Shown: in pieces, positions 37,461 through 58,266 of the stretch
How positions within the stretch are numbered: position 1 is the first letter of the stretch
Layout: each line of letters starts with the position of its first letter
Program-made: the position numbers and the translations under genes
Assembly: GCA_045536655.1 (NCBI GenBank)
Contig: JAZSOA010000012.1
Coordinates: forward strand, 124,385-188,384
Origin: Candidatus Nanosyncoccaceae bacterium
GTDB lineage: Bacteria > Patescibacteriota > Saccharimonadia > Saccharimonadales > Saccharimonadaceae
Reading direction: 5' to 3'
Length of the DNA stretch: 64,000 nucleotides
Notes under the pieces: model-generated
The model's input: the letters and a program-made list of their open reading frames with translations, nothing else
Database searches by the model: none
What the model was told of the DNA's origin: nothing

Positions 37461-37568
37461 GAAACACAGTCTTGAGGGAGGACCATCCCCAAGCTAGAAC
37501 ATTAGTAACCGATCAGTTTTTCGGGGACTAAAATCCGACACGTGCACCTATAAGGAGGAAAATGCACT

Positions 37569-53728: not shown

Positions 53729-56700
53729 ATGGAATTCGAAAAGGCTTATAATCACCTTAATGAAAATCAGCGTGCAGCCGTCGATTATATCGATGGACCA
53801 CTTCTTGTAATTGCCGGCCCAGGCACAGGCAAAACCCAGCTTCTTTCCGTCCGCGTCGCGAATATTCTCAAACAGACCGACGCCAATCCAGAAAACATTC
53901 TCTGCCTAACCTTCACCGAAACTGGCGCCAGTAATATGCGTCATCGCCTTGCCGACTTCATTGGCCCAGAAGCCTACAAAGTCCAAATCCAAACCTATCA
54001 CGCCTTCGGATCCTTCATTCTTCAAGAACACCGCCCGGACCTCAACGCCGCCATCGACGATCTCGAGCGTTTCACTCTAATCCGCAAAATTCAGGCTAAC
54101 CTTCCAGCCACAGATATCCTGCGCCCAGATTATTTCACTCAACACATCATCAGCGCTATTAGCGAACTCAAAGCCGCCGCGCTCGCTCCAGAAGACCTGC
54201 GCAAAATCGTCAAGCGCAACGAAATCGACAACGGCCTCATCTATGCCGCCATCAGTGAAAAACTTCAACAAACCAAGGGTCTACGTTATCCAAAATCTAC
54301 CGCCAAATACACCGAAATCCTCGAAGCTTTGCAATCCTTCATCGATCGTGCAGATGCGCAGAAAACCATCCTTGGCAAAGTCGAGCCAGTTGTTAATATT
54401 TACTACCGCGAGCTCGCCGAAGCCCTCCTCACCGAAGAACAGAGCGAAAAGCCGAGCAGCAAACTTCCAGGCAAATGGCGCGAAAAATTCTTCAAGAAAA
54501 ACAAGCAGGGCGAGTATGTTTTTGGCGATGACATTGCCAATAAAAAGCTCCTCAGCCTCGCCAATATCATGGAGCAATACCAAGCCCATCTCGACGCCGA
54601 GGGCCTTTTCGACTACGACGATATGATCCTAAACGCCATCGCTCTTCTCGAGAAAGATGACGAAATTCGTTACAATGCACAGGAACGCTTCCAATACATC
54701 CTCCTCGATGAATTCCAGGATACCAACGACGCTCAGGCTAAACTCGTCAGTCTCCTCACAGACAACCCAAGTAACGAAGGCCGCCCAAATATTATGGCGG
54801 TCGGCGACGACGACCAGGCCATCTATGGCTTCCAGGGCGCCAACACCTCCAATTTCTTCGATTTCGACGCCAAATACCATCCAAAACAAATCTTCCTCAC
54901 CAAGAATTACCGCTCCAGCGAGCCAATCCTTGAATTCGCCCACAGCGTCATTGAACAGGGTGCAGACCGCTTCTGCAAATCTCCAAGCGTCAACATCGAC
55001 AAGCACATCACTGCCGAAAACCCGCCAGAGAAAACCAGCATCGAGCTTCGCGCTTTCAAGGCTTACCAAAGCGAGTATTCTTACATTGCGAGCGAAATTC
55101 ATCGCCTCATGAGCGAAGGTGTGCCGGGTAACAAAATCTCCATCATTGCACCAAAACACAAATACCTCGTTTCGATCCTGCCATATCTCCATGCGATGAA
55201 TATCCCAATTTCTTACACCCGCCGCGATAACATTCTTGAAGATCCCGAAGTCGAAGAAACCATCAACTGCGCCAAACTCGTCAATGCCTTGACTACTGGC
55301 GACACGCGCAAGGCTGACCCATATTGCTTCCGCGCGCTCAGCCTCCCGTACTGGAAAATCAAAAACGGCACCATCGTCACACTTTTGCATGATGCCAGGG
55401 CCAACCGCCAAAGCATCATTGAAACTATCTACGCCAACAAAGACGAAGAGGATGCTGAGAACCAAAATCTCCATGCCTTCGCAGATTTTTACATGGAGCT
55501 CGCCAAGAAAGCCGCAGATTACAGCGCCGAGAATATCCTCGCCCAAATCTGCACCACAATTATCAACGGTCAGGACAATATCGTTCTCTATAGCAAGCTC
55601 AACACCTTGCGCGAGATTATCGGCAAGAAATCCGCCCGCGGTAACCACAAATTTAACATCGCCGATTTCTGCAATTATATCGACGCTTATAATGCCGCCG
55701 AATTACAAATCACCGACAGCTCACCATACAGCGAATCCGACGAAGCGGTTGTTTTGCAGACCGTTCACAGCTCCAAAGGTCTCGAATACGAAGCTGTCTT
55801 CCTGATCGCCGCCGACAATAAAAACTGGTCCGATGCTGGCGGCAACCGCGACCTTATTAAACTTCCGCGCAACCTCGCCTTCGTCCGCCATACCGGCGAT
55901 ACAGCCGACGAGAAGATTCGTGTCTTCTTCGTAGCCATCACGCGCGCCAAGGCCAAGCTTTATCTCACTTACAGCCTTTCGGATTTTGCTGGCCACGAAG
56001 CCGACCGTCTCAAATATCTCGATATTCGCGAAGCTACCGACGAAAAATCCGGCGACAAAATTCACGTCAGCAAAATTATTCCAGAGCCATTCAATACCGA
56101 ATTGCCGGGCGAATCCGAAGATTTGGCTGCCGAAGACTTTGCGCCAAACCGTTGGTTCGATTCATATATTCCAAGCGACGAGGTCAAGAAAAATCTCCTC
56201 AAGCCATACGTCGAGCATTACAAACTCACTCCAACCGGACTCAATACCTTTATTGACCTACGTTACAATGGCCCAGACGCTTTCTTGCGCCGCTATGTCA
56301 TTGGCGAGCCAAGCGAAGCCAACTTTAGCGCCGATTACGGTACGCTCATTCACGATGTTATGGACGAGCTAAATAAAGAACAGCTTTCCAACGAAGACGC
56401 GCTTGAGCGCTTCAAGCAAAAAGCCGCCGAAGCCGATGCTGACGACAAGACCAAGCAAGATCTCCTCGAACGTGGCGAGCACGAGCTTTCGCGCTTCCTA
56501 GCAGAGCGGGGTGATTATCTCCGCAGTGTCAAGGCCGAATCGGAGCGCAATTTCGCAAGTGAGGGAATTGTTTTAGGCGAAGTGCCACTCACGGGTAAAA
56601 TCGACCGCATCGAGATTGACGAAGAAAACAAAACCATTACTGTAGCAGATTACAAAACTGGTACGCCTAAATCTAAGTGGGGAACTTCCGACAGCACCTA

Positions 56701-56986
56701 TACCTACAAGATTCAGCTCTATTTCTACAAATTCCTCATCGAAAACTGCCGCGCCTACCAAAATTACAAAGTCACCAAAGGCCGTATTGATTACATTCCA
56801 GCCGACTCCGACGGCGATATTGTGCCACTCGAGCTCAACTTCAAAGCCGACGAAGAAGAGAAGATGAAGAAGCTTATCCAGGTAGTTTACAAGCACATCA
56901 AGTCTCTAGATTTCCCAGAAACCGCCGAGGCCAACAAGGCCAGCAACCCAACTGTCGCCTTCGTCGAACAACTGCTAAGCGAATAA
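53729..56986 (+). CDS. UvrD/PcrA-type helicase fused to a C-terminal PD-(D/E)xK (RecB/AddB-like) nuclease
   Basis: AGPGTGKTQ Walker A, LLDEFQDTN, VGDDDQAIYGFQGA, TVHSSKGLEY. C-terminal GKIDRIEID...ADYKTG nuclease motif. Confidence 0.9.
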   Translation: MEFEKAYNHLNENQRAAVDYIDGPLLVIAGPGTGKTQLLSVRVANILKQTDANPENILCLTFTETGASNMRHRLADFIGPEAYKVQIQTYHAFGSFILQEHRPDLNAAIDDLERFTLIRKIQANLPATDILRPDYFTQHIISAISELKAAALAPEDLRKIVKRNEIDNGLIYAAISEKLQQTKGLRYPKSTAKYTEILEALQSFIDRADAQKTILGKVEPVVNIYYRELAEALLTEEQSEKPSSKLPGKWREKFFKKNKQGEYVFGDDIANKKLLSLANIMEQYQAHLDAEGLFDYDDMILNAIALLEKDDEIRYNAQERFQYILLDEFQDTNDAQAKLVSLLTDNPSNEGRPNIMAVGDDDQAIYGFQGANTSNFFDFDAKYHPKQIFLTKNYRSSEPILEFAHSVIEQGADRFCKSPSVNIDKHITAENPPEKTSIELRAFKAYQSEYSYIASEIHRLMSEGVPGNKISIIAPKHKYLVSILPYLHAMNIPISYTRRDNILEDPEVEETINCAKLVNALTTGDTRKADPYCFRALSLPYWKIKNGTIVTLLHDARANRQSIIETIYANKDEEDAENQNLHAFADFYMELAKKAADYSAENILAQICTTIINGQDNIVLYSKLNTLREIIGKKSARGNHKFNIADFCNYIDAYNAAELQITDSSPYSESDEAVVLQTVHSSKGLEYEAVFLIAADNKNWSDAGGNRDLIKLPRNLAFVRHTGDTADEKIRVFFVAITRAKAKLYLTYSLSDFAGHEADRLKYLDIREATDEKSGDKIHVSKIIPEPFNTELPGESEDLAAEDFAPNRWFDSYIPSDEVKKNLLKPYVEHYKLTPTGLNTFIDLRYNGPDAFLRRYVIGEPSEANFSADYGTLIHDVMDELNKEQLSNEDALERFKQKAAEADADDKTKQDLLERGEHELSRFLAERGDYLRSVKAESERNFASEGIVLGEVPLTGKIDRIEIDEENKTITVADYKTGTPKSKWGTSDSTYTYKIQLYFYKFLIENCRAYQNYKVTKGRIDYIPADSDGDIVPLELNFKADEEEKMKKLIQVVYKHIKSLDFPETAEANKASNPTVAFVEQLLSE

Positions 56987-57013
56987 AACCATACTATTCT
57001 CACCTCCATATTA

Positions 57014-57042
57014 TTGACAATTTATGCCTCTTGTGCTATAAT
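57014..57042 (+). promoter_or_regulatory. Consensus promoter
   Basis: TTGACA-17 nt-TATAAT with TGc extended -10. Confidence 0.7.
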
Positions 57043-57162
57043 ATATAACATACACTCCCAGGCAATAGTCTGGGCGTAGTTCACTCAGAAAGGAATGATC
57101 CCAATGGACTAATCCCCCCCATTATCTCCAATCTAGTACCTTACAAAGGAGGTGAGTATGTA

Positions 57163-57390
57163 TGCTGTTTCGACAGATGCAACAACTGCGGCAGGCTGAG
57201 ATATCTGCAGAACGGGTTATGTGACGACTGTGCAAGCCACGGCGCCGCAACAACACCCGGTGGCAGTATCTTCGGTCACGGCTGGGGTGACCGGCCGACC
57301 TGCAAGGAGTGCGACGGAACCGGCATGGTTCAGCATTTCTTTGGAGGCCCCACCAAGTGTCCTTACTGCAAGGGTACTGGCAAGCAGTAA
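57163..57390 (+). pseudogene. GC-rich zinc-finger mini-protein frame (4 CxxC motifs, 2 of DnaJ CxxCxGxG type) lacking an in-frame start codon
   Basis: Frame reads CCFDRCNNCG..LCDDCA..TCKECDGTG..KCPYCKGTGKQ*. AAGGAGG SD at 57145-57151. The ATGs at 57158 and 57162 are in the other two frames and stop after 13 and 20 codons. Confidence 0.5.
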
Positions 57391-57424
57391 TCCGATCATC
57401 CATCCACCCATACATCCCACACGG

Positions 57425-57449
57425 GGCCCCGCACAACCGGGGCCTTTTT
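57425..57449 (+). terminator. Intrinsic terminator
   Basis: ggccccg-cacaac-cggggcc followed by ttttt. Confidence 0.75.
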
Positions 57450-57492
57450 CTTGCACAAAAATACCACCGCTTGATTGACGGTGGTTTATTTC

Positions 57493-57588
57493 TTAGCGGC
57501 CATCTTTGTGGCGAGCGTGCTTGCGCTTTTCGCTGTGCTTGTGATTATTGTTGCGATTAAGTAGCGCAACCTTAACTTTCTTTGCCAT
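57493..57588 (-). CDS. Possible 31-aa highly basic mini-protein on a leaderless transcript
   Basis: MAKKVKVALLNRNNNHKHSEKRKHARHKDGR*. TTGCGA-16-TGgTATAGT lies 6 nt before the ATG. A ccaccg/cggtgg terminator (57464-57484) follows. Confidence 0.4.
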   Translation of the reverse strand: MAKKVKVALLNRNNNHKHSEKRKHARHKDGR

Positions 57589-57669
57589 AGATATACTATA
57601 CCATATCTTAAGAATCTCGCAAAACGTAACATTTTTTGACAATTACCAAAAATATATTATAATCACAAG

Positions 57670-57851
57670 CAGAGAGATTTCCACCTCTCTTTACTATATA
57701 GGTCCCGATGGTTCGCGGGTAGCTCATTATGAAAGGGGAGTGAAACCAATGGGCTAAACAATCCTATTTCTGTCACGTTTTGTCAAATGAAAGCATATTG
57801 ATTTCATTTCATCTCATTTTTCCGGGTCGTGCCTTCGCGGCCCGCTTTTTT
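57670..57851 (+). ncRNA. Candidate ~180-nt sRNA or leader
   Basis: TTGACA-16-TATAAT at 57636-57663. Hairpins at 57671-57690 and 57785-57809, and a terminator cgggtcg-N8-cggcccg followed by tttttt (57823-57851). Only a 2-codon ORF inside. Confidence 0.45.
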
Positions 57852-57978
57852 GTGCTAAAATAAATACATCGAGCTATACTTTGGTCCCTGGCTACGATTC
57901 ATAAAATCCGACGCTAAAGATTCCAAAAGAATCGCGTCAAAAATCATTATTAGTTAACGCGAATTGCGAAGGATTTTT

Positions 57979-58266
57979 ATGAATCAAAACTCTTACTCTT
58001 ACAACGAACAACCCCTCCACGAACCCATCGAAGTCGATGCTACTTTTTCGCGCCAGCTTCTCGGTCATTGTCGGCCGATCGCCTTCCGTACCGAATCTGG
58101 CAGAGAAGTACAAATCTCCGAAATCGGCCTCATTCATCCAAAATACGACGGCCTTAAAACCCTTTTCGCTTTCGATGTTACCGATGGCGCCACGGACTAC
58201 CGCCTCACTCTCGACACCGAAAGTCTCAACTGGTATCTAGATTACGAAGGAGATCGCTATGTATAA
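57979..58266 (+). CDS. Small hypothetical protein (95 aa) translationally coupled to dinB; paralog of 25201-25452
   Basis: GAAGGA SD plus ATG 57979 (the track ORF starts at TTG 57964). Its stop overlaps the dinB ATG by 8 nt (ATGTATAA). Confidence 0.65.
   Translation: MNQNSYSYNEQPLHEPIEVDATFSRQLLGHCRPIAFRTESGREVQISEIGLIHPKYDGLKTLFAFDVTDGATDYRLTLDTESLNWYLDYEGDRYV

Follow-up and report, generated by a model that had tools for sequence, protein, structure and literature searches.

A Shine-Dalgarno and mini-ORF element shared by a small RNA gene and a neighboring mRNA leader in rumen Saccharibacteria

Introduction

Regulatory RNAs of Saccharibacteria and of other bacteria of the candidate phyla radiation (CPR) are almost unexplored. 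Here, we describe a short RNA element that occurs twice, as copy 1 and copy 2, between a helicase gene and the dinB operon in a 64,000-nt stretch (hereafter, the window; GC content 43-53%) of the genome of a rumen Candidatus Saccharibacteria bacterium of the Nanosyncoccaceae. Each copy joins a Shine-Dalgarno (SD) sequence to a tiny open reading frame (mini-ORF), and the original prediction, made from the letters of the window, regarded the pair as leader motifs of two neighboring transcripts and as members of an undescribed cis-regulatory RNA family. Comparison with related genomes indicates that the element is real and undescribed, but that it represents a small RNA gene of a narrow clade together with one paralogous leader copy, and not a demonstrated structured cis-regulatory family. 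DinB homologs, as well as the DNA itself, assign the window to rumen and gut Candidatus Saccharibacteria, with a Candidatus Nanosyncoccaceae metagenome-assembled genome as the closest named genome. Throughout, L-numbers denote loci of relatives, X-numbers denote contigs from RNA libraries or metagenomes, and R1 is the covariance model of the element.

Organization of the locus

The features of the locus are collected in Table 1; downstream of them lies an operon of yolD-like, dinB and polA genes with an extended -10 promoter (TGCTAAAAT) and a 5' untranslated region (UTR) of ~115 nt. Transcription of the copy-1 mRNA is predicted to start at ~57049-57050, its RNA contigs end at 57396-57406, and its promoter also precedes the orthologous leaders in L009 and L101. 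Copy 2 lies in a second transcript, whose start is predicted at ~57670 and whose -10 box stands at a constant distance from GCAGAGAG in all variants of this RNA; its terminator, which adjoins the dinB-operon promoter, is kept in all variants with altered stems. The locus does produce two transcripts, as had been proposed, but the second of these is a small RNA gene rather than an mRNA with a leader.

Table 1. Features of the helicase-dinB region, in window coordinates
Feature	Position	Strand	Remark
UvrD/PDDEXK helicase	53729-56986		First gene in local order
Promoter of copy-1 transcript: TTGACA, 17-nt spacer, TATAAT, with TG	57014..57042	+	Consensus at 12/12 positions
5' GC hairpin of copy-1 leader, CCCAG gcaatagt CTGGG	57057..57074	+	
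Copy 1 of element	57076..57112	+	R1 match 22.7 bits, E ~2e-4
Copy-1 5' arm TAGTTCACT	57077-57085	+	
Copy-1 extended SD-like tract AGAAAGGAATGAT	57087-57099	+	
Copy-1 3' arm AATGGACTA	57103-57111	+	
Copy-1 mini-ORF ATG GAC TAA	57104-57112	+	
Small Cys-rich zinc-ribbon ORF (DUF5351 / DnaJ-CXXCXGXG-like)	57162..57390	+	3' of copy 1; from translation
Intrinsic terminator of copy-1 mRNA	57423..57452	+	
Tiny 31-aa basic protein gene	57493-57588	minus	
Promoter of small RNA: TTGACA, 16-nt spacer, TATAAT	57636..57663	+	Consensus at 12/12 positions
Small RNA gene, ~185 nt	57670..57855	+	Mini-ORF is the only coding part
Small RNA 5' hairpin AGAGAG/CUCUCU with CU-rich block UUUCCACCUCUCU	57671..57690	+	
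Short GC hairpin CCCG atggttcg CGGG	57704..57719	+	Directly 5' of copy 2
Copy 2 of element	57719..57757	+	R1 match 71 bits
Copy-2 5' arm TAGCTCATT	57720-57728	+	
Copy-2 extended SD GAAAGGGGAGTGA	57731-57743	+	
Copy-2 3' arm AATGGGCTA	57748-57756	+	
Copy-2 mini-ORF ATG GGC TAA	57749-57757	+	
Third conserved block UCAAAUGAAAGCA and hairpin AAAUGAAA/UUUCAUUU	57783..57809	+	From small-RNA alignment
Intrinsic terminator of small RNA	57823..57855	+	9-bp GC-rich stem and T run

Relatedness of the two copies

Both copies, with their mini-ORFs and the short GC hairpin before each, lie where the original prediction had placed them; 29 of 37 positions agree when the two are aligned with a single 2-nt gap, and the fourth pair of the proposed 9-bp stem is U-A in one copy vs C-G in the other. 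The stem itself is complete in copy 2 (9/9 pairs, one of them G-U), but in copy 1 it reaches 8/9, with a C-A mismatch. The similarity is modest. Under divergence-tolerant scoring (+1/-1 or +5/-4), no other stretch of the window matches copy 2 locally as well as copy 1 does, and copy 1 outscores 100 of 100 dinucleotide shuffles; under stringent scoring, the similarity does not rise above shuffles. R1 was built from copy 2 and six small-RNA homologs of other loci, with copy 1 excluded, and its next match in the 64 kb after copy 1 is no better than E = 3.5. Because a model built without copy 1 thus matches copy 1 uniquely, the two copies are related, copy 1 being a paralogous copy in a neighboring mRNA leader.

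Two further resemblances did not hold up. A weaker relative suggested at 37503-37536 was not detected by R1 at E <= 10, and the 11-mer TAAAATCCGAC, although present at 37529 and 57902, is at chance level and carries no weight, because direct repeats of at least 11 nt form 1,087 pairs in the window (vs ~460 in shuffles).

Copy 2 as the core of a small RNA gene

In other genomes, copy 2 recurs within a constant unit consisting of promoter, 5' hairpin with the CU-rich block, short GC hairpin (found in every variant, although its loop and stem length differ), element, third conserved block and terminator. This unit exists in nine sequence variants, carried by loci L008/L027, L092, L099, L001/L093, L103/L104, L102, L007 and L051/L095; all lie near dinB, and some are not upstream of it. 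The small RNA stands just 5' of the dinB promoter in 7/9 variants, and at most loci it lies between the tiny basic gene and that promoter. In L051, however, its place is between yolD and dinB; in L099 it is parted from the dinB promoter by a 200-bp insert; and in L102 it lies 3' of dinB on the opposite strand, in convergent orientation and with no gene after it. (The L099 insert, at 200-400 of that locus, is packed with short tandem repeats, GTTCAACTTGTT / GTTTAACTTGTT, and flanked by an inverted repeat.) The unit is absent from L009, L010 and L100, whose DinB proteins are 96% identical, and from L003, L004 and L006 (67-70%), and these relatives still retain the dinB promoter and leader. Given this varied position, its absence in close relatives, and the separate promoter and leader that dinB has in every relative, copy 2 is the core of a dispensable, free-standing small RNA gene and not of a dinB leader. 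The gene has its own promoter and intrinsic terminator, lacks a protein-coding ORF and is conserved across genomes.

A coding search of the small RNA found no frame open for more than 4 codons and no conserved ATG outside the mini-ORF, so a hidden small protein was rejected. A tRNA-like origin was also considered, because GGGUAGCUCA is reminiscent of the acceptor and D arm of a tRNA; Rfam gives no tRNA match there.

Rumen metatranscriptomes contain contigs that cover the small RNA in isolation. Contig X25 spans 57633-57774 at a depth of 29 with its flanks not covered, and the adapter-flanked contigs X26 and X27 run from 57682 to ~57823. These isolated contigs argue for an abundant short RNA, with the qualification that the contigs carry no strand information and that X25 begins upstream of the predicted start.

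The anatomy of the small RNA raises the alternative that it is a trans-acting regulator. An anti-SD-like CCACCTC (57681-57687), exposed in the 5' hairpin as part of the CU-rich block, would pair with strong SDs of targets and repress them, the SD and mini-ORF core serving as an internal mimic or decoy and copy 1 as a target-like or competing site. C/U-rich loops aimed at SDs are a common design in Gram-positive small RNAs, the gene has the promoter, terminator and short isolated RNA contig expected of such a regulator, and the block is kept in 8/8 full-length variants (as CCACCTT in L092), even in L051, where the stem of the hairpin is replaced. We nevertheless regard this alternative as somewhat unlikely: no target was found, duplexes between the small RNA and the dinB leader in 6 genomes were no better than shuffles, pairing of the block with the internal SD did not surpass shuffles of matched composition, a mimic of the anti-SD would lack specificity, and the kept AUG and early stop would go unexplained.

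Copy 1 in the leader of the zinc-ribbon mRNA

Copy 1 belongs to the 5' UTR of the small zinc-ribbon gene, 27 nt 3' of where transcription is predicted to start, and isolated contigs of rumen metatranscriptomes, X39 (57063-57406) and X40, span both the leader and the ORF. The encoded protein matches DUF5351 (E = 1e-6), with weak similarity to DnaJ-CXXCXGXG and to anti-TRAP. Homologs are intact in L101, L009 and L100, whereas the window ORF is frameshifted at codon 3, reading TTT at 57168-57170 where relatives have TT (ATG CTG TTT CGA C vs ATG TTG TTC GAC, one additional T in a short T run), so that no in-frame ATG, GTG or TTG lies close to its perfect SD. Contigs of related strains aligned to the window omit position 57168; the frameshift is either real, making the gene a pseudogene, or an assembly error.

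The leader is evidently evolving fast. Its 5' GC hairpin persists in L009 (TCTGG/CTAGA) and in L100, although the pairs have changed. The sister leader in L101 (93% protein identity) and Logan contigs retain GAGAGGAAGUGAUCCCAAUGGGCUAAU, but the 5' arm is swapped for GUAGAAUCUCU. Despite this replacement, the SD, AUG GGC UAA and their spacing are retained in L101. Because the 5' arm is replaced and R1 scores the L101 leader at only 7 bits, the stem is not maintained in the leader lineage, while the portion from SD through AUG to stop is.

Copy 1 might alternatively be functionless, a recent local duplication, a gene-conversion patch or merely ordinary ribosome-binding-site composition in a fast-evolving leader, with the small RNA alone being real. 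The helicase-dinB interval is a hot spot of gene presence and absence, the mini-ORF is wholly missing from the orthologous leaders of L009 and L100, and to these points may be added the failure to exceed shuffles under stringent scoring and a score of 10 bits that R1 gives to an ordinary ribosome-binding region in L006. The R1 match to copy 1 is, however, unique in the window, the three leader variants W1, L101 and contig X5 differ in their flanks yet all retain the SD, AUG, a single codon and UAA, and the L101 leader shares a downstream CUAAU(A)CCC(C)GU with the L103 small RNA, which together leave a functionless copy 1 quite unlikely. The L006 region (2851-2899, CATTACGAAAGGAGGATGCGATGAATG) belongs to the zinc-ribbon gene of a distant relative, and within it CATTACGAAAGG is identical to a stretch of the L008 small RNA. 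These resemblances hint at a possible origin of the element in a genuine region of translation initiation.

Alternatively, the element could be the shared site of an RNA-binding protein, either the zinc-ribbon protein acting on its own leader or a CsrA-like protein on a GGA hairpin loop, with the small RNA as a sponge. One element common to an mRNA leader and an abundant small RNA, the purine-rich GGA motif in a hairpin loop, and the weak anti-TRAP and DnaJ zinc-finger similarities of the protein would fit such a model. There is, however, a single site per RNA, the small RNA is present at loci without a zinc-ribbon gene (L001, L007, L008, L092, L103), and the hairpin is not conserved in leader variants; we consider a shared protein site highly improbable.

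Conservation of the SD, start and stop

SD strength was scored in 9 element sequences, comprising 7 small-RNA variants and leaders W1 and L101 (L103 and L102 were left out), as the energy of the duplex with the canonical 16S rRNA tail GAUCACCUCCUUUCU; the 16S 3' end of the host is not in the window, and a canonical anti-SD was assumed for all duplex energies. On this assumption, the extended SD is complementary to up to ~10 nt of the 16S rRNA 3' tail, and the duplexes reach -14.1 to -18.2 kcal/mol in all 9 sequences, ranking within the top 0.0-0.7% of 822 window ATGs; copy 1 stands at -14.1 kcal/mol (top 0.7%) and copy 2 at -16.8 kcal/mol, vs a median of -6.4 kcal/mol for the long ORFs of the window. 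In strength the duplexes are comparable to that of the zinc-ribbon gene's own SD (-18.0 kcal/mol). The SD tract lies 38 nt (copy 1) or 61 nt (copy 2) from where transcription is predicted to start.

The AUG of the mini-ORF is invariant in 11/11 forms, at 8-10 nt from the SD. Most variants read AUG GGC UAA, copy 1 reads AUG GAC UAA, L007 AUG CCA UGA, L102 AUG UUC UAG, and L051 AUG GGU GAU UAA. The sense codon thus varies freely while a stop is kept by way of UAA, UGA or UAG, and the sole change in length, from the one sense codon of 10/11 forms to the two of L051, is in frame. Among window ATGs, a stop follows within 2 codons in 7.1% of cases and within 3 codons in 9.9%; the joint probability of an early stop in three divergent lineages is ~5e-4, an optimistic figure given shared ancestry and the single-base step from UAA to UGA or UAG. 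The SD-like GAAAGG and tiny ORF singled out by the original prediction are the best-conserved parts of the motif, start, early stop and SD strength all being kept, and the conserved core consists of an SD, a start and a stop and not of a fold.

RNA structure and the case for a switch

The fold fares less well. Covariation in the stem, evaluated over 9 distinct sequences against 500 shuffles, is not significant: 89.7% of positions are paired, there is one double-sided change only, and 183/500 shuffles reach the observed score. The genome set can reveal covariation where it is present, because the dinB leader described below shows it (14 sequences vs nine for the stem). Minimum free energies of both RNAs, taken as single sequences, equal those of shuffles (z = -0.43 and -0.56), and the folds differ between variants.

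A second candidate structure, a hairpin AAUGGG/CCUAUU that joins the AUG region to downstream sequence and is mutually exclusive with the stem, can form in 7/11 forms. It was set aside, being weak (-2.6 to -6.5 kcal/mol), supported by one compensatory change (L001), and absent in L007 and L102.

These results bear on the switch put forward in the original prediction, in which ribosome loading on the mini-ORF would compete with the 9-bp stem or, alternatively, with the AAUGGG/CCUAUU hairpin and so control downstream translation (copy 1) or termination and read-through into yolD-dinB-polA (copy 2). Such a cis-acting switch can draw on a stem that forms in both window copies, at -10.0 kcal/mol in copy 2 and -4.9 kcal/mol in copy 1, on the exclusive hairpin at the AUG region with its single compensatory change, and on the position of the small RNA just 5' of the dinB promoter in most variants. 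In addition to the unsupported stem, its loss in the L101 leader, and the unremarkable single-sequence folds, however, neither an SD-sequestering platform nor antiterminator pairing was found, and the mini-ORF stops 65 nt before the terminator. The convergent L102 copy has no downstream gene to control, L099 carries its 200-bp insert, and where a relative is without the small RNA, its dinB operon still has a separate promoter and leader. A switch of this kind seems very unlikely.

The element likewise departs from established cis-regulatory classes. Leader-peptide attenuators are not matched by 1-2 sense codons of varying identity with no antiterminator, nor by units in which a downstream gene is missing (L102), set apart by an insert (L099), or served by a promoter and leader of its own (dinB). 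Structured cis-regulators and riboswitches are not matched by an element with no significant covariation, no constant 5' UTR position, and no match to a described family. As a leader-borne element it is confined to one gene family, that of the zinc-ribbon protein; the nine variants are free-standing small RNA genes.

Distribution and novelty

The motif has homologs in other genomes, and its description as an undescribed RNA family stands, albeit for a narrow clade and not for a broad cis-regulatory class. Rfam 15 gave no relevant match for the whole window at gathering thresholds, for 56950-58000 at E <= 10, or for the L051 small RNA at E <= 1. When 185,579 species, each represented by one genome, were scanned with a degenerate pattern, 77 matches resulted, only 2 of them in Saccharibacteria; the other 75 are random (vs ~50 expected from the information content of the pattern), none having GTAG upstream and only 2 an early stop. 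A scan of Joint Genome Institute (JGI) metagenomes gave four real and four random matches, and three pattern matches in viral contigs, all inside one phage coding sequence, were dismissed as chance. A literature search found no described Saccharibacteria small RNA. The small RNA family is undescribed and, by this distribution, restricted to a narrow clade of rumen Nanosyncoccaceae.

A proposed ribosome-docking module

We tentatively favor, short of calling it probable, a reading of the shared element as a ribosome-docking module resembling a STAB-SD (a stabilizing SD sequence) or a minigene. Docking is proposed as the selected property because, in the 5'-proximal part of two strongly promoted RNAs, an exceptionally strong SD is followed at the correct spacing by an AUG that never varies, a codon of any kind and an obligatory early stop. 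The module would comprise the extended SD, an AUG 8-10 nt 3' of it, one or rarely two arbitrary sense codons, and a stop. A 30S subunit or 70S ribosome would bind, initiate and terminate almost immediately, ribosome occupancy near the 5' end and not the peptide being the point. The docked ribosome might shield the RNA against 5'-end-dependent decay, in the manner of a STAB-SD or of an initiating ribosome in Firmicutes, or might modulate what follows downstream, or both. The flanking hairpin holds the AUG within its stem but leaves the SD in the loop, and so could tune access. What the data show are the sequences, the promoter and terminator signals, transcription in metatranscriptomes, the homology of the copies, and the conservation of SD strength, AUG and early stop; ribosome binding, the stabilizing or modulating effect, and any role for the stem are what we infer.

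Several observations weigh against this reading. The zinc-ribbon gene has a perfect SD of its own 45 nt 3' of copy 1, with a duplex of -18.0 kcal/mol. Contig X25 begins 37 nt 5' of the predicted start of the small RNA and covers the promoter, and its start at 57633 points to an upstream start, read-through or DNA carry-over. The variants come from close relatives, so that conservation is partly inertia, and UAA to UGA or UAG is a single-base change. The duplex energies rest on the assumed anti-SD, the host's 16S 3' end being outside the window. A Pfam scan of the nine large ORFs of the window (432-825 aa) revealed no RNase J. Finally, it makes little sense for a free-standing small RNA to exist solely in order to be stabilized, and docking would leave its two further conserved blocks, CCACCUC and UCAAAUGAAAGCA, unexplained.

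A bolder proposal, which we deem unlikely, holds that binding and 'translation' at a two-codon minigene with a super-strong SD are themselves the selected function of a ribosome-engaging small RNA in these ultra-small epibiotic bacteria, for example as a sponge for ribosomes or initiation factors or as a sensor of translational capacity; the paralogous copy would give the neighboring mRNA the same control. Such a class of small RNA is so far undescribed.

Whichever function applies, the finding supplies a concrete, expressed and easily mutated small RNA family whose core is an SD, a start and a stop. Its narrow distribution limits its reach, and its function is a proposal.

The dinB-operon leader and neighboring features

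The leader of the dinB operon (57852-57981) is conserved and structured, and occurs also in L001, L003, L004, L006-L009, L051, L092, L099, L100, L102 and L103. Its first hairpin (57869-57899) stands at the 5' end and has a C(UUCG)G cap; the linker GAUUCAUAAAAUCC leads from it to a second one, GACGC/GCGUC (57910-57938), which contains a variable insert. Over 14 sequences, 99.1% of positions are paired, with 13 double-sided changes, and 0/500 shuffles reach the score; Rfam gave no match (56950-58000 at E <= 10). This leader may be an undescribed cis-regulatory or stabilizing leader of a DNA-damage-tolerance operon, and may offer a better lead toward a cis-regulatory element.

The interval between the helicase gene and the dinB promoter (window 56987-57860; also L001, L006-L009, L100, L103) is a presence/absence hot spot, whose cargo among relatives includes the zinc-ribbon gene, a 172-aa protein with a helix-turn-helix (HTH) pair, a 90-aa protein and the small RNA, gained or lost among genomes with DinB 88-96% identical. 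The highly basic 31-aa ORF (MAKKVKVALLNRNNNHKHSEKRKHARHKDGR), unannotated and missed by gene callers, is kept in the ten relatives where it was found, including L001, L007, L008, L009, L051, L092, L100, L101 and L103, and has no match in Pfam, NCBIfam or PDB. In L003 (5020-8221; 69% DinB identity), a Cas9-like gene with HNH and RuvC domains lies 3' of dinB, in the place of polA.

Comparison with known systems

In its general architecture, the small RNA resembles Gram-positive small RNAs with C/U-rich anti-SD seeds, such as RsaE/RoxS and RNAIII: it is free-standing, its promoter is of the consensus type, it ends at an intrinsic terminator, and a conserved CU-rich block lies at or close to the loop of a hairpin. 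It differs from them in having no sequence or Rfam relationship to them and in its conserved SD and mini-ORF, which they are not known to carry.

The minimal reading frame recalls the bar minigenes of phage lambda, in which an SD and AUG AUA UAA lie on a short, strongly transcribed RNA. The bar effect is a toxicity that arises through peptidyl-tRNA drop-off of one specific tRNA in cells limited for Pth. The element has the identical anatomy, in that a short transcript carries an SD and then an AUG, a single sense codon and a stop. Unlike in bar, the sense codon varies here (Gly, Asp, Pro, Phe), so that no specific tRNA is implicated.

The start-stop ORFs of Escherichia coli yecJ and hslR likewise combine an SD-like sequence with a start and a near-immediate stop, encoding no meaningful peptide. 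Start-stop sites bind ribosomes, and ribosome binding itself is their proposed function (bioRxiv 10.1101/520783). These sites have no sense codon and lie inside genes, whereas in the element one or two sense codons intervene in 11/11 forms, and the setting is a 5' UTR and a small RNA.

Perhaps the closest parallels are the STAB-SD of Bacillus thuringiensis cry3A, which binds the 30S subunit and blocks RNase J1 (PMC4113751), and the B. subtilis hbs mRNA, which is protected by initiating ribosomes at a strong SD (PMC5737220). Both carry a strong 16S-complementary SD-like tract in the 5' part of the RNA, either upstream of the real coding start or apart from it, that is thought to hold a ribosomal subunit blocking 5'-3' decay (PMC4113751, PMC5737220). 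The tract of the element (-14 to -18 kcal/mol with the assumed canonical anti-SD) similarly lies in the 5' region, apart from a protein start. However, STAB-SD does not direct initiation, whereas the element has a conserved AUG and early stop at canonical spacing, and the AUG at 8-10 nt suggests that initiation does occur here. The element is also, unlike STAB-SD, the core of a non-coding small RNA. Should ribosome docking prove correct, the STAB-SD and start-stop ideas would come to include a small RNA that stands alone, in organisms whose genomes are minimal.

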